From: a virus
Lineage: Duplodnaviria; Heunggongvirae; Uroviricota; Caudoviricetes
Virus record (IMG/VR): IMGVR_UViG_2703718836_000006
Strand: one strand, 5' to 3'
DNA length: 13,937 bases
Each line of letters starts with the position of its first letter. Position 1 is the stretch's first letter. A program made the position numbers and the translations under genes. Below are positions 2 through 12,182 of this stretch, one piece after another. The notes under the pieces are model-generated. The model ran no database searches and was not told where the DNA came from. It saw only the letters and a program-made list of their open reading frames with translations.

Positions 2-1972
2 GTAAGTTGGCACCATTACCAAACCTTTGAAGAATATAGGCAGTTAGGTTATGCATGTCAAATTAAAAAATATCAGTCTTATGAAGAAGCACATAAGGAA
101 TTATTTAATGGCTTCTTTAGCGTCGATTCAACTAAAGAAAGGTTGATTAAAGATTATAATACTTTCACAGATTCAATTGTAAAAATTCACTCACCTACTG
201 CAACTTATTCCTACATAAATTCAAAATATTACTTAAATGGTGTTATTGGCGAAGCTAATGTTGTTACGGAAATATTAGAGAGAATACAACATAGGCGTCC
301 AATTCTGTTTTTGATTGAGGCTGCAGCCGGTTTTGGAAAGACTTGCACGGCGTATGAATTATTGAGGGAGATTATAGTTAACAATATAGGGAAAATACCA
401 TTATTTTCAGAACTATCAAGGAATAGGCAAGCAAAAATATTCAGGTATGTACTATTAGATGAAATTGATAGAAGTTTTCCTTTGTTAAGCTCAGCCTTAG
501 TAAGGAATGAAATAAGAGCAGGAAATGTACCAGTTATACTTGACGGGTTTGATGAACTATTGCATGAAAGTACAAACGGAATTGAAAATAATTATGAAAA
601 AACAGAGCCAATGCTGGAAACAATAAGTGAGCTTCTAACTGATAGTGCAAAAGTGGTTTTGACAACTCGAAGAACAGCTATATTTGACGGAGATGAATTC
701 CATCAGTGGATAGCATCACATCAAGAAGATTTTGATGTGATAAGAATAAGAATTCATGAACCACAAATTGAAGACTGGCTTCCAGGTCAACGTTTAGATG
801 AAATTTCATCGACAGGATTTCCTCTTAACAAATTATCAAACCCTGTACTGCTATCATTTCTAAGATGCATCGACGACACCGACTTTAATAAAGTTATAAG
901 CGACCCAACAACTATAGTGAGGAAGTATTTTGATTCAATGCTTGAGCGAGAAAGAAAAAGACAAGATTTATTAATGTCTATTGAAGATCAATATACTATA
1001 CTAAAAATAATAGCTGACGACATGGTCGAGGGTAACTACACATCTGAGTCTAGAGAGTATATATCGTTAGTCATAACTGAAAAGAATCAACAACTCTTGG
1101 AGGCTACAAGAAAGCTTTATACTGTAGATGAAAGACCAACTACTGACGAATTAGTTAATAAATTAGCATCGCATGCTCTATTAGATCGGTCAGGCTCAGA
1201 AAACCAAGGTATTGGATTTGTTAATGAATTTGTTCTTGGTAATTTTGTTTCTGAAAATATTATTAATGATAAGTCAAATGAATGGATTGGTGATAAACGT
1301 TTTATAGAACCAGCAGTGCAATCTTATATGCCGAGGATCGATGATGAAAAAGAATTACTTTGGCATAGCTTAGAGTTTGCTTTATATTTTATGTCAGGTA
1401 ATGATAAAATCCTTTATAGTCATTTGCTTATAGGAAAAGTTCCATTAGATTTAAAAAATGATAGTGTTGAGCAATTGTCTATATCAAAACTTTCTTTAGG
1501 CGATATAAATATAATACATGATACTATCTTTGTTGATTGTTCGTTTTTTAGCAGCATATTTACCTGTGGTAATTATAAAAACGTTACATTCGTGAACTGT
1601 TCTTTTATAGATTGTAGTTTTAACGAATTAAGTGGTAGGGAAGATATTTATTTTTTGGGATGTGAATGTGACAATGATGCTATTAATAAAAAATCTGTCG
1701 AGATAAACAGTGAAAATGATCACGATATTACAGATTGTGATATTTACATCTTAGAGAAGTTCTGTCCCAGAGGGAGTGTTAGCTATCATAAGCATCGGCC
1801 TATAAAAGGCTTATGTTCTAACAACAATCAATTTCAGTTAAGTGAAATACTCCATTCTTTAGATAAATTGAGGAAAGACGGTCTTTTACTTACGCCAGAC
1901 AAGCGTTCGTTCCTTGAACTTAACATGGCAAGAATATCAGAGATTAAAGCAATTCTTGGGAGGAATTTCTGA
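2..1972 (+). CDS. NACHT-type STAND P-loop NTPase, probably 5'-truncated by the window edge; C-terminal Cys-rich repeat region
   Basis: ORF track gives 143..1972 (609 aa), but the frame has no stop between nt 2 and 143 and TTG143 directly abuts a purine run with no spacer, so the true start is probably upstream of the window. Motifs read from the translation: Walker A 'EAAAGFGKT', Walker B 'VPVILDGFDEL' (hhhhDGhDE, the NACHT signature), sensor-1-like 'VVLTTRR'. C-terminal 5-residue periodic repeat FVDCS/FTCGN/FVNCS/FIDCS. Confidence 0.8.
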   Translation, partial: VSWHHYQTFEEYRQLGYACQIKKYQSYEEAHKELFNGFFSVDSTKERLIKDYNTFTDSIVKIHSPTATYSYINSKYYLNGVIGEANVVTEILERIQHRRPILFLIEAAAGFGKTCTAYELLREIIVNNIGKIPLFSELSRNRQAKIFRYVLLDEIDRSFPLLSSALVRNEIRAGNVPVILDGFDELLHESTNGIENNYEKTEPMLETISELLTDSAKVVLTTRRTAIFDGDEFHQWIASHQEDFDVIRIRIHEPQIEDWLPGQRLDEISSTGFPLNKLSNPVLLSFLRCIDDTDFNKVISDPTTIVRKYFDSMLERERKRQDLLMSIEDQYTILKIIADDMVEGNYTSESREYISLVITEKNQQLLEATRKLYTVDERPTTDELVNKLASHALLDRSGSENQGIGFVNEFVLGNFVSENIINDKSNEWIGDKRFIEPAVQSYMPRIDDEKELLWHSLEFALYFMSGNDKILYSHLLIGKVPLDLKNDSVEQLSISKLSLGDINIIHDTIFVDCSFFSSIFTCGNYKNVTFVNCSFIDCSFNELSGREDIYFLGCECDNDAINKKSVEINSENDHDITDCDIYILEKFCPRGSVSYHKHRPIKGLCSNNNQFQLSEILHSLDKLRKDGLLLTPDKRSFLELNMARISEIKAILGRNF

Positions 1973-2877
1973 TGTATAACGGGAATGAATTGCGAATTAT
2001 TCAAAGTTTGCAAAAAGATATAGAAGATGAACTTAATCGTATTGGATTACTTTATCGTTTTTTTTCGAGGACAAAATCAGAAAGCTCAATAATTAAGAAA
2101 TATGAAAAAGAGCCTAATAAATACTCAGAGGATGGTAAAAAAATTCAAGACTTATTTGGGGTTAGGATAATATTATATTTTCCTGATGATTTATTTATTG
2201 CTCAAAAAACACTGGAGAAATTATTCGAAATTGAATCTAAAACCGTAGACGAAACCACGGCTAATCTCTTTGCGGCAACTCGATGCAATTACGTCTTTAA
2301 GTTACCAGAAGTATTATCAAATGATAGTGTCTTATTAAAGAAATATTCTTATATTGATACTACTTTTGAAGTCCAATTTAGAACTATTTTATCTGAAGGA
2401 TGGCATGAAGTTGAGCATGATCTACGCTATAAGTGCAAAGAGGATTGGGTTGAGCATAATGACCTTAGTCGCGCGCTGAATGGAATTTACGCCTCTTTGG
2501 AAACATCTGATTGGGGAATAATGAAGTTATTTGAGGATTTAGCATATAGAAATTATAAGTCAAGCGCATGGTCCGCTATGCTAAGAAATAAATTAAGATT
2601 GAGAATGGACGATAAGCTTGATGAAAAGATAATTTCAATAATTAATGAGAAAGAGCTTGGTAAAAAGTTTTATAGAATTGACAGAGATCGTTTGTTATCG
2701 TTAATGTTAGATTATAATATTGATATACCAATTAATCTTAATAATATAATTTACCTTTGTAATTATTTTTTCATAAAATCTACGGAGCTTCAGGATATAG
2801 CCCCTGCTTTAATAATGAAAAAGCTTACAGATGCTGATGAAAAATTCAATAAAAATACTATTTTAGCATCTAAATAA
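1972..2877 (+). CDS. RelA/SpoT-like nucleotidyltransferase (small alarmone synthetase / toxSAS-like)
   Basis: 301-aa ORF; its ATG overlaps the upstream TGA by 1 nt (TGATG), implying translational coupling. Synthetase-domain motifs in order: 'SRTKSESSIIKK' (R-x-K-S...S-I...K), 'DLFGVRIILYFPDD' (D-x-x-G-x-R), 'EVQFRTILSEGWHEVEHDLRYK' (E-V-Q-[IF]-R-T...W...E-H...Y-K). No hydrolase (HD) domain seen. Confidence 0.75.
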   Translation: MYNGNELRIIQSLQKDIEDELNRIGLLYRFFSRTKSESSIIKKYEKEPNKYSEDGKKIQDLFGVRIILYFPDDLFIAQKTLEKLFEIESKTVDETTANLFAATRCNYVFKLPEVLSNDSVLLKKYSYIDTTFEVQFRTILSEGWHEVEHDLRYKCKEDWVEHNDLSRALNGIYASLETSDWGIMKLFEDLAYRNYKSSAWSAMLRNKLRLRMDDKLDEKIISIINEKELGKKFYRIDRDRLLSLMLDYNIDIPINLNNIIYLCNYFFIKSTELQDIAPALIMKKLTDADEKFNKNTILASK

Positions 2878-7547: not shown

Positions 7548-8777
7548 TTATGCGGCAATAACTTTGTATTTTTGAGACGAAACATAGTCACTCCACCATT
7601 GCATGAGAACCACACGTTCTGTGAGATACTCTGCACGATTGTAGGCTGCAATTATTTCATCTTTTTTCGAGTGGGCAAGGGCGGCTTCTAAGACATCAGT
7701 TCTAAACTTGCCACACTCCTCAGCCGCCGTTCTAGCGATTGATCGCATACCATGAGCTACAAGCTCACCTCCGAAGCCCATACGGATTATAGCCGCATTA
7801 GCTGTTTGTTCATGCATGTGATTGAGTGGAGCTTTGATACTGGGAAAAACCCACTCTCTATGCCCGCTGATGGCTTTCATTGAATCCAAGACGCGCAAAG
7901 ATTCTTTGCTCAGTGGAACTTTGTGAGGCTTCTTCATTTTCATAAACTCCGCCGGGATGTTCCACATGCTGGTTTCTATATCAATATCTGACCATCTTGT
8001 GCGAACAGCTTCACCAGGGCGAACCCATGTGAGAAGTTGCCACTCAATCAGTAGCCTTGTTTCTAAACGGATAGAAGCATTGTTTAGAGCAACCAGGAAG
8101 CGGGGGAGTTCGGAAGGGGGTAATGCTGGCATATTCTGTTTTTTTGGCTTGCTGAACCGTTGCCCCAGGTTGTCAGCCGGATTGAATTCTATGAGTTCTT
8201 CTGTTGCTGCATAGCGGAAAATTTCATTCAGGCGGGATATGACGCGGCGAAGTGTTTCAAGGACACCTCGTTTTTCTATGGGGTCTAAATGCTGTTTAAG
8301 CATTTTAGGGCGAATCTCCTTAATGGGGGTATCACCCAACGTTGGAAAGATATTTCTCTCTAGGCTTCGCCAGATGTCGTTAGCATGATCCTGGGAGATG
8401 CCTGACGTTTTGACTTTCTCATCAAGCCACTTCTTGGCTACTGCTTGAAATGTATGTTCCGTTGCATCCTTAAGGGCATTGGCTTTGTGGGTGTTATGAA
8501 CTTGTGGGTCTATACCATTTGCAAGCAACGACAAGTACTCATCACGTAAAGCTCGTGCCTTCGCAAGTGTAAGGTGAGGATAGGTTCCTAAGCTCACCTT
8601 AGTTCGCTTTTTGGTCACAGGCACTGCATATCTGAAATACCAATTTTTCTTTCCTCCCTTCGCTAAGGGGGCGATTCGCAGGAGCAAACCATCGCCGTCA
8701 AAAAGGTTAACCTCTTTCTCGGCAGGTTTGGTGCTTTTGATTTCAGTGTCAGTGAGCTTCTTAGCGATTTTTGCCAT
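7548..8777 (-). CDS. int: P4-type tyrosine integrase (N-terminal arm-binding domain + catalytic domain)
   Basis: ORF track extends to 8921, but the conserved N-terminus 'MAKIAKKLTDTEIKSTKPAEKEVNLFDGDGLLLRIAP...WYFRY...LGTYP...LAKAR...GIDP' begins at the ATG at 8777 (alternative in-frame ATG at 8793). A start at 8921 would run the ORF across the terminator at 8876-8909, so it is rejected. Catalytic region has 'AHGMRSIARTAA' and 'AALAHS...YNRAEY'. Confidence 0.85.
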   Translation of the reverse strand: MAKIAKKLTDTEIKSTKPAEKEVNLFDGDGLLLRIAPLAKGGKKNWYFRYAVPVTKKRTKVSLGTYPHLTLAKARALRDEYLSLLANGIDPQVHNTHKANALKDATEHTFQAVAKKWLDEKVKTSGISQDHANDIWRSLERNIFPTLGDTPIKEIRPKMLKQHLDPIEKRGVLETLRRVISRLNEIFRYAATEELIEFNPADNLGQRFSKPKKQNMPALPPSELPRFLVALNNASIRLETRLLIEWQLLTWVRPGEAVRTRWSDIDIETSMWNIPAEFMKMKKPHKVPLSKESLRVLDSMKAISGHREWVFPSIKAPLNHMHEQTANAAIIRMGFGGELVAHGMRSIARTAAEECGKFRTDVLEAALAHSKKDEIIAAYNRAEYLTERVVLMQWWSDYVSSQKYKVIAA

Positions 8778-8818
8778 GTTTGGGACCCTCATGTTTTGGA
8801 CCCTTTGTGTTGGGTCCC
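8775..8818. promoter_or_regulatory. Tandem copies of a GGGWCCC-containing motif (CATGTTTGGGACCC / CATGTTTTGGACCC / TGTTGGGTCCC) overlapping the integrase start
   Basis: Read from sequence; GGGACCC and GGGTCCC are self-complementary. Both candidate int start codons lie inside repeat units. Confidence 0.4.
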
Positions 8819-8875
8819 AAAAAGGGTGCCATAACGAGTAGATTCTAGCAATTCTCGGTAGACTACTATAGACGT

Positions 8876-8909
8876 AAAAAAGCCCGCAAGGCTGGTTCCA
8901 TGCGGGCTT
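8876..8909 (-). terminator. Rho-independent terminator on the minus strand (stem AGCCCGCA/TGCGGGCT, 12-nt loop, then T5)
   Basis: Perfect 8-bp GC-rich stem 8881-8888 / 8901-8908; the minus strand reads stem-loop followed by TTTTT (plus-strand AAAAA at 8876-8880). Lies between the tmRNA 3' fragment and the int start. Confidence 0.6.
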
Positions 8910-8943
8910 GATAGACTTCACTGAACTTCAATATATCAAAAAT

Positions 8944-8973
8944 TGGTGGAGCTGGCGGGAGTTGAACCCGCGT
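8944..8973 (-). other. ssrA: 3'-terminal ~30 nt of a tmRNA (ssrA) gene (T-arm + acceptor 3' strand + CCA): attachment-site core copy, not an intact gene
   Basis: Minus strand reads ACGCGGGTTCAACTCCCGCCAGCTCCACCA: T-stem GCGGG/CCCGC with a 7-nt TTCAACT loop, acceptor strand CAGCTCC, discriminator A, CCA. This matches my recollection of the enterobacterial tmRNA 3' end. The sequence 5' of it (8974-9100, minus sense) is AT-rich and has no tRNA-like or tmRNA-like structure. Confidence 0.65.
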
Positions 8974-9114
8974 ATGATTGAATTTATGTGTATGAAAAAT
9001 AAAGTTTAATTTCTTCCTGCAATCTTTGCGTATCAAAAACGTGCACTTCGTCATTATTTTATAGTAATTTATTTTGCTCATTTTTGACTAGACAGATTTG
9101 GCTGAGGTGTCGCC

Positions 9115-10038
9115 ATGGAACTGTTGATTTCCCCAAAAAGATTGTGCCTTTATAATGATTCTGATCGCCGTGTTACAGCTAAGTTTTTGAACTCAGTTGA
9201 TAACACCCTTGCGAGAGCATCTGGACAAGTGGTTATAGACTTTTCGACAGTAGAATATGCAGGTGCTGCAGCTAGCGTAAGGTTGTTTGCTATCATCAGT
9301 AGGGCTTATTTTATGGCATTCGGCACAAGTAGTCTTCGATTCATTTGGCCGAAAAAAGAAAATAATCCGTATGGGCATCGATATATTGTTGGGACGGGGT
9401 TATCGATTGCTCTAATGGCAAATACAGTTGATAAATTAGATGTTCTTACTAAGGAACGCAGGTACTTTCAGTCTGCTGTGGAACCGTATGAACATTGGGC
9501 TAAAACGATGGAATTTATTGATTCAAAAGCAATTCTCACATTTGAGCAATATCTTTTGGTCTCCTCAGCCCTTAGTGAGGCAATGCTGAATGTTTCATAT
9601 CATGCATATGAACATCCAGACTTTGCTGGTGCTATAGAGCATATGCAAGGGAAACGATGGTGGCAGAGTTGTTGGTACAACCCTGACACAGACAAGGTTG
9701 TCTTTATTATTTATGATCTTGGGCTTGGCATACATAAATCATTTACTTCAGCCTCTCCGTTGTTTACTGGGTATGACGACGTGACATCTGTGTCAACAGC
9801 CCTGACAGGAGGACAGTCCAGATATGTTAACGCTGGACGTGGTAATGGTTCTGAGGATATAAAGAGACCTATAGGGTCTGGCTGTGCGAATTCAGAATCA
9901 CTTTTGGTGTTCACAGGGAATGTTAAGTACAGCTATAATTCAAGAAATGAGGTTCCCAAATGCGAGTGGATACCTGAGTACATGCCGGGAACATTGATTG
10001 AATGGTCATTAGTTCCGAGGAGAGGAGAAGATGGTTAA
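9115..10038 (+). CDS. GHKL-family ATPase/kinase-like protein (RsbW/SpoIIAB-type HATPase domain in the C-terminal half; N-terminal half unassigned)
   Basis: 307-aa ORF with RBS GAGGT 6 nt upstream of the ATG. N-box 'LSEAMLNVSYHAYEH' (E...N...HA), G1 'IIYDLGLGI' (DxGxG), Gly-rich 'GRGNGSED', C-terminal 'MPGTLIEWSL'. Confidence 0.65.
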   Translation: MELLISPKRLCLYNDSDRRVTAKFLNSVDNTLARASGQVVIDFSTVEYAGAAASVRLFAIISRAYFMAFGTSSLRFIWPKKENNPYGHRYIVGTGLSIALMANTVDKLDVLTKERRYFQSAVEPYEHWAKTMEFIDSKAILTFEQYLLVSSALSEAMLNVSYHAYEHPDFAGAIEHMQGKRWWQSCWYNPDTDKVVFIIYDLGLGIHKSFTSASPLFTGYDDVTSVSTALTGGQSRYVNAGRGNGSEDIKRPIGSGCANSESLLVFTGNVKYSYNSRNEVPKCEWIPEYMPGTLIEWSLVPRRGEDG

Positions 10039-10372
10039 CATCGTCATAGCAAGGGATTTCTCAAAGATGCCATTTGGAAGGTTCAAGTCTGACAGCCCGA
10101 ACAGTGCTGAGCGTTTTCGTAAGGACTTTCTGGTTCCTGCATTAAAATCTGGTGAGCGTGAGGTTGTCGTAGATTTTACGGGTATAAATCATGGGATTGG
10201 TTCTTCGTTTCTAGAGGAGGCCTTTGGAGGGCTTGTTAGGAAGGAAGGTGTACCTAAGGCTGACATTAAGGCAAAACTAATTATAAAAAGTGATTTGCCG
10301 TTCTATAAAGATCAAATTTTTAGATATATTGAAATGGCTAATCCAGAAAGGAAGCCTTTCCAAAGGAGTTGA
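10031..10372 (+). CDS. Small STAS-like (anti-sigma-antagonist-fold, DUF4325-like) protein, translationally coupled to the GHKL gene
   Basis: 113-aa ORF; start overlaps the upstream stop by 8 nt; AGGAG immediately upstream. 'EVVVDFTGINHGIGSSFLEEAFGGL' resembles STAS-like domains that partner RsbW-type kinases. Confidence 0.55.
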   Translation: MVNIVIARDFSKMPFGRFKSDSPNSAERFRKDFLVPALKSGEREVVVDFTGINHGIGSSFLEEAFGGLVRKEGVPKADIKAKLIIKSDLPFYKDQIFRYIEMANPERKPFQRS

Positions 10373-10373
10373 T

Positions 10374-11003
10374 TTGAACACCGTTGATATTAAGGACACC
10401 CTTGCAGGGGTGTCCACTTACGCATGGATGTTTAGTGTTGTGAGTATTATCTTAGTGTTTATTGGATGGTTTGTTACTTACAATAATTCACTGAAGATTG
10501 CTACTCGCTCTGAATCTAAATCGATTATAGATGCGATTGCTAAAATTTTAAACGAAATATCAGATTTGTCTCTGGATTACTGGGTTAATAAGTCAACACC
10601 ACCAGATTCTAATCCATTTAAGAAAAAAAATTTTAAGAACTCTAATGGATTGCATACTCAGTCGGCGAAAATATATTTAACGGCAATTCATGGAAAAGCC
10701 ATACAAATAAATAAATACATTAATCTTCTCGATGAGAGGGGGATAAAAATAACAATTTCGTATTTTTCTAATATTATAGATGAAGCTACTATGGAATGTG
10801 AGAAATCATATTGTTTTAATAAGTCATATAGGGTTTTTCGCGCTCAGAATGTATCTAGTGCTTGTGTCGATTTCATAATGCATTTATATGATTCTTTTCA
10901 AAAAAATCATCCGCCACGTAAGCCTGTATATGTATTGAAAACATTAAAACAATTGGATTGTTACTTGGATAAATGGCATAATGAATTATGTGGGCGGCAA
11001 TAA
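10374..11003 (+). CDS. Hypothetical membrane-anchored protein (single N-terminal TM helix 'MFSVVSIILVFIGWFVTY'); start uncertain
   Basis: ORF track gives 10290 (a GTG, overlapping the upstream gene by 83 nt). I favour TTG at 10374, preceded by AAGGAG at 10363-10368; ATG at 10428 is another option. Low GC. No recognisable catalytic motif. Confidence 0.45.
   Translation: MNTVDIKDTLAGVSTYAWMFSVVSIILVFIGWFVTYNNSLKIATRSESKSIIDAIAKILNEISDLSLDYWVNKSTPPDSNPFKKKNFKNSNGLHTQSAKIYLTAIHGKAIQINKYINLLDERGIKITISYFSNIIDEATMECEKSYCFNKSYRVFRAQNVSSACVDFIMHLYDSFQKNHPPRKPVYVLKTLKQLDCYLDKWHNELCGRQ
10394..10415. other. Perfect 8-bp inverted repeat GGACACCC-ttgcag-GGGTGTCC
   Basis: Read from sequence; GC-rich dyad in AT-rich context just after the STAS-like gene stop. 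Confidence 0.3.
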
Positions 11004-11011
11004 ATGCCGCC
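10993..11011. terminator. GC-rich hairpin GGCGGCA-ataaa-TGCCGCC between convergent genes; putative bidirectional terminator or att-proximal structure
   Basis: Perfect 7-bp stem spanning the stop of the plus-strand gene (11001-11003), 5 nt from the stop of the minus-strand integrase (11016-11018). No strong T-tract. Confidence 0.35.
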
Positions 11012-11015
11012 ATAA

Positions 11016-12182
11016 TCATTGTATAATGTATTTGATGGAGCTTTTTCCGTCGTATTCTTTGAGATATCGACCATAGTGCCTGAAAAGCATCTCAGGCCCT
11101 TTATGCCCCATTTGAGCTGCAAGCCAAAACAGGTTCGCTCCCCGGCTGATATGGCGGGTGGCGAATGTATGCCTGGTTTGATATGGGTTTCTGTAACGAA
11201 TACCTGCTTTTCGTAATGTTGGCACCCATGCTTTTTTCCTTATTGCATCAGCACTTGCCCAAGGCTTATTGGTCTTTGGGTCTTCAAAGACAGTAGCATC
11301 CTTCATGAATGTAAATGGCTTCTGATTTATCAGCGCCAACATTGCCTCTTCTGTCAGTTCAACTTTACGAGTACCTGCTTTTGTCTTTGTCCCTTTGATA
11401 ACACCGACAACACTTGCGCTCTGGACATGGGCAGTTTTTCCAACAAAGTCGATATCACGCCATCTAAGGGCACATAATTCAGAACTACGCAGGCCTGTAT
11501 GTATAGCGAACCGGAACAGATTCTCCCATTGTTTGTTTCCGGCTGCTGCTAGTAATGCATCAACTTCTGTTGGTGATAGCGGATCAACCACGTAGCAACT
11601 TTCTGCTTCTGACTTATCACTTTGGTAGCGCGAAGCAGTTACCAACGATACGGGGTTAATTTGAAGTACCCCATCGGTTACGGCTTCATCAAGTGCTGAC
11701 CGCAGGAAAGATAACTGGTTGCGAATTGTTTTTAAGGTCGTTTTCTGGCTTTGAATCCACGCTTTCAGGATTGCTGGTGTTAATTCACTTGCAGGGCAAA
11801 TGTGGAGTGAGGCTAACGCACTACGGCATTTTTTATAACCACCAATCGTTGAGGGTGAGAGTTTTCTCGTTTCGCAGATTTCAAGATATTCGTCCAGGTA
11901 CATTTTTACCGTTTTGCCTGCAGCAGCATTACCAAAAATTTTCAAACGAGCAGAACGGGGAAAATATTCCGCATAAATGAATGTTCCCCTTTCGATCTTA
12001 TTATGAATTTCGCCGAGTGTGCGCTCGGCGTATTTAATGTTCTTTGGTGTTACTTCCAGATTAGAAAGAGGCTCACGACATTTAACTCCTTTGTAGGTGA
12101 AAGTTATATTGATCGTTTCGCCCTGGCGGTGTTTCCTGATTGTTACGCCGCGCGGTAGTTTGAGCAGTTTTGTCTGGCCCAT
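11016..12182 (-). CDS. int: Phage-type tyrosine integrase (lambda-family catalytic domain with N-terminal arm-binding domain)
   Basis: 388-aa ORF; catalytic residues in context: 'AIHTGLRSSELCAL' (Arg), 'RHTFATRHISRGANL' (H-x-x-R), 'LFRHYGRY' (Tyr nucleophile). GC content visibly higher than the cargo. Confidence 0.9.
   Translation of the reverse strand: MGQTKLLKLPRGVTIRKHRQGETINITFTYKGVKCREPLSNLEVTPKNIKYAERTLGEIHNKIERGTFIYAEYFPRSARLKIFGNAAAGKTVKMYLDEYLEICETRKLSPSTIGGYKKCRSALASLHICPASELTPAILKAWIQSQKTTLKTIRNQLSFLRSALDEAVTDGVLQINPVSLVTASRYQSDKSEAESCYVVDPLSPTEVDALLAAAGNKQWENLFRFAIHTGLRSSELCALRWRDIDFVGKTAHVQSASVVGVIKGTKTKAGTRKVELTEEAMLALINQKPFTFMKDATVFEDPKTNKPWASADAIRKKAWVPTLRKAGIRYRNPYQTRHTFATRHISRGANLFWLAAQMGHKGPEMLFRHYGRYLKEYDGKSSIKYIIQ

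Follow-up and report, generated by a model that had tools for sequence, protein, structure and literature searches.

Two described bacterial systems join a kinase with STAS and GHKL domains to a small STAS protein (Chambers et al., EMBO J 2026; PMC13373217). In the first, CapK (HTH-STAS-GHKL) phosphorylates CapS (STAS-wHTH) on a conserved serine upon single-stranded DNA (ssDNA) or DNA damage, and phosphorylation of CapS de-represses adjacent immune operons. The second, the VapKSC operon, encodes VapK (STAS-GHKL), VapS (the antitoxin, a STAS domain that ends in a short helix), and VapC (a PIN toxin); the third protein is the effector and VapK is the sensor, and the operon protects against phage Bas42, the only phage reported, in a manner dependent on VapS S48, mutation of which abolishes function. 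A membrane-protein variant of the kinase-STAS switch is not mentioned in that paper. Here we analyze a three-gene cassette, A-B-C, which forms an operon at positions 9115-11003 of IMG/VR record IMGVR_UViG_2703718836_000006, a 13,937-nucleotide stretch of Escherichia coli chromosome (the window) from the ssrA (tmRNA) integration hotspot. Judged from its sequence, the cassette appears to be an uncharacterized relative of the recently described VapKSC defense switch, with a membrane protein in the place of the nuclease. The interpretation we favor, to which we assign a probability of roughly one half, is that it is a self-contained module of kinase, STAS substrate, and membrane protein carried as prophage cargo and acting as a VapKSC-like defense of the toxin-antitoxin type, with a membrane output substituted for the PIN nuclease.

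The three proteins and their conservation

A preliminary description of this DNA had reported a gene for a 307-aa protein with an RsbW/SpoIIAB-type HATPase domain, translationally coupled to a gene for a 113-aa STAS-like protein and followed by a low-GC gene for a protein with a single transmembrane helix. All three genes were present in that order at 9115-11003 (Table 1), and structure prediction confirmed both the GHKL and the STAS folds. The HATPase domain of A was as described: the closest solved structures to the A model were the anti-sigma factors SpoIIAB and RsbW, and the motifs comprised an N-box (E155/N159/H163-A164), a G1 box (D201-x-G203-x-G205), a G2 box (R242-G-N-G-S-E-D), and G292-T293. 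The ATP-site boxes (N-box, G1, G243/G245 of G2, and G292-T293) were invariant in an alignment of 41 close homologues, and these residues were conserved in essentially all of 170 sequences that included distant relatives, with G205 present in 159 of the 170. Conservation of the N-box, G1, and G2 thus argues for a working ATP site in A. A further signature of the family, R181-W182-W183, follows the N-box. The Pfam model HATPase_c_2 matched A itself below threshold (E=0.006) and matched 35 of the 41 family members. What the preliminary description had missed was a second, N-terminal STAS domain in A. We made this assignment from the structure model and from the alignment with VapK described below; when the STAS region of A was compared with the B family by hhalign, the result was not significant (probability 2.3%). 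No HTH domain was found in A or B with Pfam, and searches of Protein Data Bank (PDB) sequences with the A and B profiles gave only marginal STAS and RsbW N-box matches. From the model and the motifs, A is predicted to be a fusion of a STAS domain to a SpoIIAB-class GHKL serine-kinase-like ATPase.

For comparison with the described systems, the VapK, VapS, CapK, and CapS sequences were taken from the supplement of PMC13373217 and their residue numbers checked against its text. Alignment of the A-family profile (170 sequences) with the VapK-family profile by hhalign gave a probability of 99.2% (E=3.7e-19) and spanned both domains, from residues 25-303 of A and 30-292 of VapK. The A1 profile gave VapK a score of only 20.8 bits, confined to the C-terminal half; a phmmer search with VapK and CapK against the best 150 A-family representatives gave no VapK match and only weak CapK matches; and the similarity of CapK and CapS to the A and B profiles fell short of significance. 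On these alignments, A belongs to a clade separate from VapK, and the homology between them lies at the superfamily level only.

The assignment of B as STAS-like was upheld by a match to Pfam DUF4325 with an E-value of 8e-15 and 54.7 bits, relative to a gathering cut-off of 23; a PDB sequence search with B found nothing. VapS is likewise a DUF4325 protein (E=2.7e-17), and the B-family HMM matched it at 16.7 bits, with Ser58 of B aligned with S48, the phospho-acceptor of VapS. The Ser58-Ser59 pair was invariant in all 13 homologues compared and was retained in four remote homologues; it lies in the invariant motif G57-S58-S59-F-L-E-E-x-F-G-G, and the family carries the signatures FSKTPFGR and GSSFLEEAFGG. 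The ATG of B overlaps the stop codon of A by 8 nt (ATGGTTAA) and therefore A and B are plausibly translationally coupled, as the preliminary description had held.

Gene C has a GC content of 0.32 versus 0.41-0.42 for A and B, and its product contains one hydrophobic helix, at aa 17-35, both features in agreement with the earlier description. A GTG start at 10290 was rejected; the TTG at 10374 has a Shine-Dalgarno sequence and agrees with RefSeq and with the N-termini of homologues. The C-terminal flank of the helix contained 3-5 K/R versus no more than 2 D/E in 38 of 38 homologues, while the N-terminal flank was neutral or acidic. This charge bias, by the positive-inside rule, predicts that the rest of C is cytoplasmic (N-out, C-in) and thus in the same compartment as A and B. 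In an AlphaFold2 model (predicted local distance difference test score, pLDDT, 78.5), C was all-helical, with the transmembrane helix continuing into a long helix plus a helical bundle. A juxtamembrane motif, R45-x-E47-x-K49-xxx-D53, forms part of the family signature GW...Y.N...R-x-E-x-K...D located just past the transmembrane helix. We infer that C is the output or effector of the cassette.

C is the fastest evolving of the three proteins, the two E. coli alleles (that of the window and a sister allele considered below) being 42% identical in C versus 52% in A and 70% in B. C also usually lies 4-10 GC points under A and B of the same operon (the window and loci L002, L010, L018, L022, L024, and L026), and the trio as a whole is below the local GC in most loci. 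The low GC and fast change of C could reflect the codon content of a membrane protein or diversifying pressure.

The trio was conserved well beyond E. coli. Close homologues of A (n=149) were all about 300 aa long and mostly gammaproteobacterial, and a pattern search found A-B-C intact and consecutive in eight of eight loci from species-representative genomes (Pluralibacter, Budvicia, Rouxiella, Serratia, Cognaticolwellia, Enterobacter, an Oceanospirillaceae metagenome-assembled genome, and Haemophilus). The trio was likewise intact in Klebsiella, Yersinia, Vibrio, Pseudoalteromonas, Pantoea, Providencia, and Photobacterium; its genes overlap or sit no more than about 40 nt apart. An exhaustive search with the A profile, with hits clustered at 50% identity, gave 2456 representatives at E<=1e-3 and 1310 at E<=1e-10. 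Four distant A relatives were sampled (A-profile E-values of 6e-44 to 2e-24), and all were accompanied by a DUF4325 gene and a third gene encoding 150-190 aa; the genes of these remote trios matched the family HMMs, with 88-102 bits for B and E-values of 1e-15 to 1e-23 for C. Conservation of the trio as a unit indicates that the open reading frames are not chance ones. We concluded that A-B-C is a conserved unit in every homologous locus looked at, across several gammaproteobacterial orders and in distant relatives.

Genomic contexts and the cargo slot

In the window the cassette lies between an att copy, contained in a 3' fragment of ssrA, and the integrase gene (int) of a lambdoid prophage. 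The integrase of this prophage family was present in 396 complete E. coli genomes, and homology ended 27-56 nt inside its 3' end; the content of the int-att interval therefore varies between strains. In strain Ecol_732 the slot (locus L033, 1704-4416) held a 577-aa AAA ATPase with PtuA/AriA/GajA-like matches and a methylase that matched PD-Lambda-5_B at E=6e-124, so that the slot is there occupied by a validated defense system; strains W409 and 2011C-4315 carried unrelated small gene sets in it, and strain ZJ3920 carried the sister allele of the trio. We concluded that this prophage family has a hotspot for cargo in its att-int slot. The window's own allele was present in 10 E. coli genomes and the sister allele in 126-129 of 5426, including ATCC 11775, S88, and APEC O1. 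Other cargo in att-int slots was seen at L034 (3265-4453) and L035 (2270-4192): one strain had a pair encoding 271 aa and 127 aa, and another had a ParA-family protein with two hypothetical proteins and only a weak PDC-M28B match. The unrecognized cargo of these two slots represents possible further candidate systems.

Elsewhere the trio was nearly always found in prophage moron sites or defense islands. In Klebsiella it again occupied an att-int interval, that of another lambdoid prophage whose integrase also differed; in Providencia it lay between the lysis cassette, which it directly followed, and the terminase; in Yersinia it was in a prophage tail region; and in Vibrio it adjoined the integrase of an element with a GpA-type replication gene. 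The Pantoea trio belonged to an ssrA island and was flanked by a TerB/BrxC-BrxD-like ATPase/DEAD-helicase triplet (Shango-like) on one side and an AAA_21+HNH pair (Septu-like) on the other. Among the remote trios, one was in a P2/186-like prophage, where replication/DinI genes and the portal gene flanked it, one was at the end of a P2-like prophage, and another was next to a gene for a 1197-aa TIR protein. Beside one remote trio (L028, 7981-12909, minus strand) there was a second DUF4325 protein (101 bits with the B-family HMM) followed by a weakly C-like protein of 166 aa; a 1323-aa protein, which matched NACHT only below threshold, lies upstream of this second pair, and B-like and C-like proteins may thus be coupled also to a different, large sensor protein.

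The preliminary description had noted that no sigma factor gene accompanied the kinase-STAS pair and that the pair sat at the att junction. Both observations held: there were no sigma factor genes in the window, and gene A starts 141 bp from the ssrA fragment. Among about 20 distinct contexts a sigma factor gene was adjacent in one only, that of two Pseudoalteromonas loci, and no PP2C/SpoIIE family member was found among the neighbors in the contexts examined. These findings bear on the alternative that the trio performs classical partner switching, in which A and B would be an anti-sigma kinase and its antagonist controlling a sigma factor encoded elsewhere. The similarity of A to the structures of SpoIIAB and RsbW speaks for such a role, and the Pseudoalteromonas trio (L018, 2581-3799; L019, 6608-7826) does lie 175 bp downstream of an extracytoplasmic function (ECF) sigma factor gene (Sigma70_r2/r4_2) and a 207-aa gene. 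This is, however, the sole case fitting classical partner switching, and the adjacency, at loci that also have a TonB_C gene upstream, is probably coincidental. Moreover, the trio's conserved third member is a membrane protein, its linked genes include no PP2C phosphatase, and the family nearest to A by profile is VapK rather than the anti-sigma factors, RsbW being matched at 14.6 bits and only over the N-box. It also counts against such a role that the enterobacterial hosts are not known to have a factor of the sigma-B or sigma-F type. We regard control of a distant sigma factor as very improbable.

A proposed membrane switch and its alternatives

We propose the following model for the cassette. 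In the resting lysogen, B would bind the cytoplasmic helical domain of C through its GSSFLEEAFGG surface and keep C inactive. A would be activated by a signal associated with phage infection or DNA damage (in the relatives, ssDNA) and would phosphorylate B at Ser58 (or Ser59); phospho-B would release C, and free C would act at the inner membrane, for example by oligomerizing and disturbing membrane integrity. Its action would arrest or kill the infected cell, thereby shielding the lysogen population, or the prophage, from competitors. As no phosphatase is encoded, the switch would be one-way. Analogy with VapKSC is the source of the proposed binding and phosphorylation steps and trigger, of a toxic C, and of the defense phenotype. 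The preliminary description had suggested a phosphorylation switch, carried as mobile cargo, that controls an effector, possibly the membrane protein. This suggestion gains from the kinase fold with its intact catalytic residues, the conserved, predicted acceptor Ser58, the three-gene linkage, the topology of C, the homology to VapK and VapS, the mobile and defense contexts, and the precedent of VapKSC and CapKS; it is only partly supported, because the STAS domain of A had been missed, the mechanism and the role assigned to C are proposed rather than observed, and the sister allele scored as non-defensive.

The result with the sister allele comes from a phage screen. The allele is the DefensePredictor candidate 'VPUS' (DeWeirdt et al., Science 2026; PMC13092281, Table S6), whose proteins WP_000060412.1, WP_001244589.1, and WP_000154254.1 are 52, 70, and 42% identical to A, B, and C of the window. 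VPUS was predicted to be defensive with log-odds of 5.75 and classed as a 'structural defense homolog', so that the cassette has, through its sister allele, already been flagged by others as a defense candidate; that paper gives no mechanism or domain analysis for it. When cloned in MG1655 (pCV1-VPUS) and challenged with a 24-phage panel, VPUS was scored defensive=FALSE and received no DS name (PMC13092281). The same authors point out that other phages, hosts, or gene boundaries may be required by systems that were not validated (PMC13092281). The negative result lowers our confidence in a defense role but is weak evidence, obtained with an allele other than that of the window.

Several further results weigh, with this one, against the proposed defense switch. 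No homologue of A was found by tblastn in 50,697 deposited phage genomes. With PADLOC-DB 2.0.0, A and B gave 0 matches and C gave one weak match to a 2TM effector (E=0.007), and neither A nor C had an above-threshold match in Pfam. The Photobacterium and Pseudoalteromonas trios are in plain chromosomal settings. C had no significant fold match in the PDB by Foldseek, the best (E=0.055) being to generic four-helix bundles and sensor domains, and no toxin or pore fold was recognized in it. The residue of A aligned with the proposed ssDNA contact VapK F54 (CapK W68) is Y48, and this position is aromatic (F or Y) in only 25 of the 41 close homologues and 44 of the 170 sequences of the broad family; the hairpin turn that bears the DNA-binding K237/K239 in CapK is acidic in A. 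The non-conserved F54 position and the acidic hairpin indicate that the activating signal of A may differ from ssDNA. Two related searches should be read beside these: megablast of the locus against phages matched the att region alone, and in PADLOC the sister allele and three remote trios gave no system match and one weak CARF-family match (E=0.012, protein P0200).

The results with C and with the ssDNA-sensing features raise the alternative that C is not a killer but a membrane anchor or sensor, responding to phage DNA injection, holin action, or envelope stress. C would then recruit or release B and thereby control A, and the output would be other phosphorylation targets or the exclusion of superinfecting DNA. 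Prophage-encoded membrane proteins often serve in superinfection exclusion. The closest, albeit non-significant, folds to C are the four-helix-bundle sensor domains of QseE (E=0.055) and Tar, toxin-like motifs are absent from C, and the putative ssDNA-sensing features of VapK and CapK are not conserved in A, which leaves room for input through C. However, the bundle of C is predicted to lie in the cytoplasm rather than the periplasm and so is poorly placed for outside sensing, its N-terminal extracytoplasmic tail is short and unconserved, and in VapKSC the third protein is the effector and VapK the sensor (PMC13373217). We consider a sensory role for C unlikely.

The negative phage screen also suits a second alternative, in which the trio is an addiction or stress module serving the prophage, either a stabilizer resembling a toxin-antitoxin pair or a DNA-damage switch tuning induction or lysis, and has no anti-phage phenotype. 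The Providencia trio follows directly after a lysis cassette, and C, which belongs to no Pfam family, had a weak and non-significant match to a holin family (E=0.12); in addition, the authors who described VapKSC and CapKS call the line between defense and stress response fuzzy (PMC13373217). Yet unrelated prophages carry the trio at many different positions, and it also occurs in non-phage islands and on bare chromosome, a distribution that fits autonomous cargo better; the same slot holds a validated defense system in a sister prophage; and a negative obtained with one phage panel is weak evidence, as the DefensePredictor authors themselves say (PMC13092281). A purely prophage-serving role seems to us quite unlikely, and would in any case provide a clean example of a partner switch without a sigma factor.

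Returning to the defense switch, we suggest, tentatively and as a possibility we ourselves doubt in its full extent, that K-S-C (A, B, and C) is a widespread unnamed anti-phage or abortive-infection system in which a STAS 'antitoxin' gates a new single-pass membrane effector and a kinase clade, recognizable by its R-W-W motif and acidic hairpin, senses something other than ssDNA. At 50% identity the A family comprises at least 150 protein clusters, a number that may exceed 1000, and the trio is found in about 2.5% of complete E. coli genomes. If the model is true, bacterial conflict systems have on at least three occasions borrowed the kinase/STAS logic of sporulation and stress sigma control: CapKS uses it to switch transcription, VapKSC to switch a nuclease, and this trio to switch a membrane output; STAS phosphorylation would be a general and modular way to arm immune effectors, nucleases and membrane proteins alike, and a new membrane effector family would be added. 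The cassette is tractable, being 1.9 kb long and from E. coli, with family members in the type strain and in well-studied extraintestinal and avian pathogenic strains (ExPEC/APEC); and the slot, which elsewhere holds a validated defense system, is useful for the study of cargo swapping by temperate phages.

The ssrA locus and comparison with known systems

The features of the locus are collected in Table 1. Window positions 8900-8973 match ssrA-annotated DNA of other E. coli genomes; the Rfam tmRNA model matched the fragment partially (20.4 bits, E=3e-6), and ARAGORN found no complete tmRNA gene in the window. The fragment forms a boundary, with the lambdoid prophage on its right and a second island with a P4-type integrase on its left. 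To the right of the prophage integrase there is an excisionase-like gene and then the early genes of the prophage, which is e14-like and has a head of the HK97 type, a layout seen in strain UTAK-10, whose locus is 99.6% identical to the window. Within the 141 bp that precede A, nothing convincing as a sigma-70 promoter came out of a promoter scan, and a terminator scan found no canonical terminator after C; the inverted repeat at the end of C, which lacks a T-run and was not flagged by the scan, may be a shared transcription stop for C and the integrase.

Table 1. Positions in the window of the cassette genes, their principal sites, and the flanking elements
Feature	Position	Strand	Remarks
Gene A ('K'), 307 aa, two domains	9115..10038	+	STAS-like aa 1 to ~121; GHKL aa ~124-303
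GHKL (Bergerat-fold) domain of A, SpoIIAB/RsbW-class	9484..10023	+	
Gene B ('S'), 113 aa, single STAS-like domain and short C-terminal helix	10031..10372	+	
Ser58-Ser59 codons TCT TCG of B	10202..10207	+	Predicted phospho-acceptor site, N-terminus of STAS helix alpha-2
Gene C, 209 aa, TTG start	10374..11003	+	AAGGAG 7 nt upstream; RefSeq start
Transmembrane helix of C, aa 17-35	10422..10478	+	Mean Kyte-Doolittle hydropathy 2.19
Inverted repeat GGCGGCA-ATAAA-TGCCGCC	10993..11011	.	Spans stop of C; 5 nt from convergent integrase stop
Tyrosine integrase of e14-like lambdoid prophage	11016-12182	-	Pfam Arm-DNA-bind_2 and Phage_integrase
ssrA 3' fragment, 44 nt, att copy	8930..8973 (approx.)	-	Sequence tggtggagctggcgggagttgaacccgcg read directly
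P4-type integrase of left island, adjoining ssrA fragment	7548-8921	-	

Several observations concern the surroundings of the cassette. A partial Rfam match to the IsrM small RNA at 8876-9006 on the minus strand (42 bits, E=2e-10; gathering score 376) overlaps the ssrA fragment and the att arm and is probably shared ssrA-adjacent island sequence, not a small RNA gene. The left island is low in GC; its segment 3930-8921 (minus strand) contains two ParB_N/RepB-like genes (298 aa each), and the island encodes a 520-aa large serine recombinase (Resolvase and Recombinase domains) in addition to the P4-type tyrosine integrase. These recombinase and integrase genes, together with the lambdoid prophage, indicate that two mobile elements are stacked in tandem at ssrA. 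At 143-2877 (plus strand) the same island has a translationally coupled pair encoding a 609-aa P-loop protein, with sub-threshold NACHT and pentapeptide-repeat matches, and a 301-aa alarmone-synthetase-like protein (Pfam RelA_SpoT, E=3e-15; only a weak PDC-S33 match in PADLOC); the pair looks like a candidate STAND plus toxSAS conflict pair. Within the UTAK-10 prophage (L001, 32220-34612), between the Q antiterminator and the lysis genes, lie genes for WP_000150292.1 and for nucleoid-associated proteins. WP_000150292.1 is the first gene of DefensePredictor system DS-1 (PMC13092281, Table S6), and the same prophage may therefore carry a second, validated defense system.

Among known systems, Rst_3HP, a three-hypothetical-protein system of P2 hotspots, was considered and dropped, there being no PADLOC match and no STAS or kinase terms either in Rousset et al. 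2022 or in a 2026 paper on P2/P4 hotspots. With SpoIIAB-SpoIIAA and RsbW-RsbV the cassette has in common the GHKL serine-kinase N-box, G1, and G2 motifs of A. It differs from them in having neither a cognate sigma factor nor a PP2C phosphatase, in the STAS domain fused to its kinase, in its obligatory membrane partner, and in being prophage cargo and not a core stress or sporulation operon. Like CapK-CapS, it pairs a STAS-GHKL kinase with a STAS substrate that carries a conserved serine, and it occurs in immune loci and mobile elements; in contrast, A lacks the N-terminal HTH, B lacks the wHTH (CapS matches HTH_24, whereas B does not), and downstream of A-B there is only gene C and then the convergent integrase, with no immune operon.

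The closest likeness is to VapKSC. Both are three-gene operons in the order kinase, small STAS protein, and third protein; in both, the kinase is about 300 aa with STAS and GHKL domains, and the STAS protein is a DUF4325 member of about 115 aa with a conserved serine where helix alpha-2 begins and a short helix at its C-terminus; and both lack a phosphatase and a sigma factor and are found in mobile or defense contexts. They differ in the kinase, the A family matching Pfam HATPase_c_2 and carrying the R-W-W motif whereas VapK matches HATPase_c, and in that protection against phage (Bas42) has been demonstrated for VapKSC and is a prediction for the present cassette. They differ above all in the third gene, which in more than 20 loci was C-like, encoding a transmembrane helix plus a helical bundle, with no PIN match for C. 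By analogy, the cassette would work like VapKSC without being a member of it, the PIN toxin having been replaced by a membrane protein.

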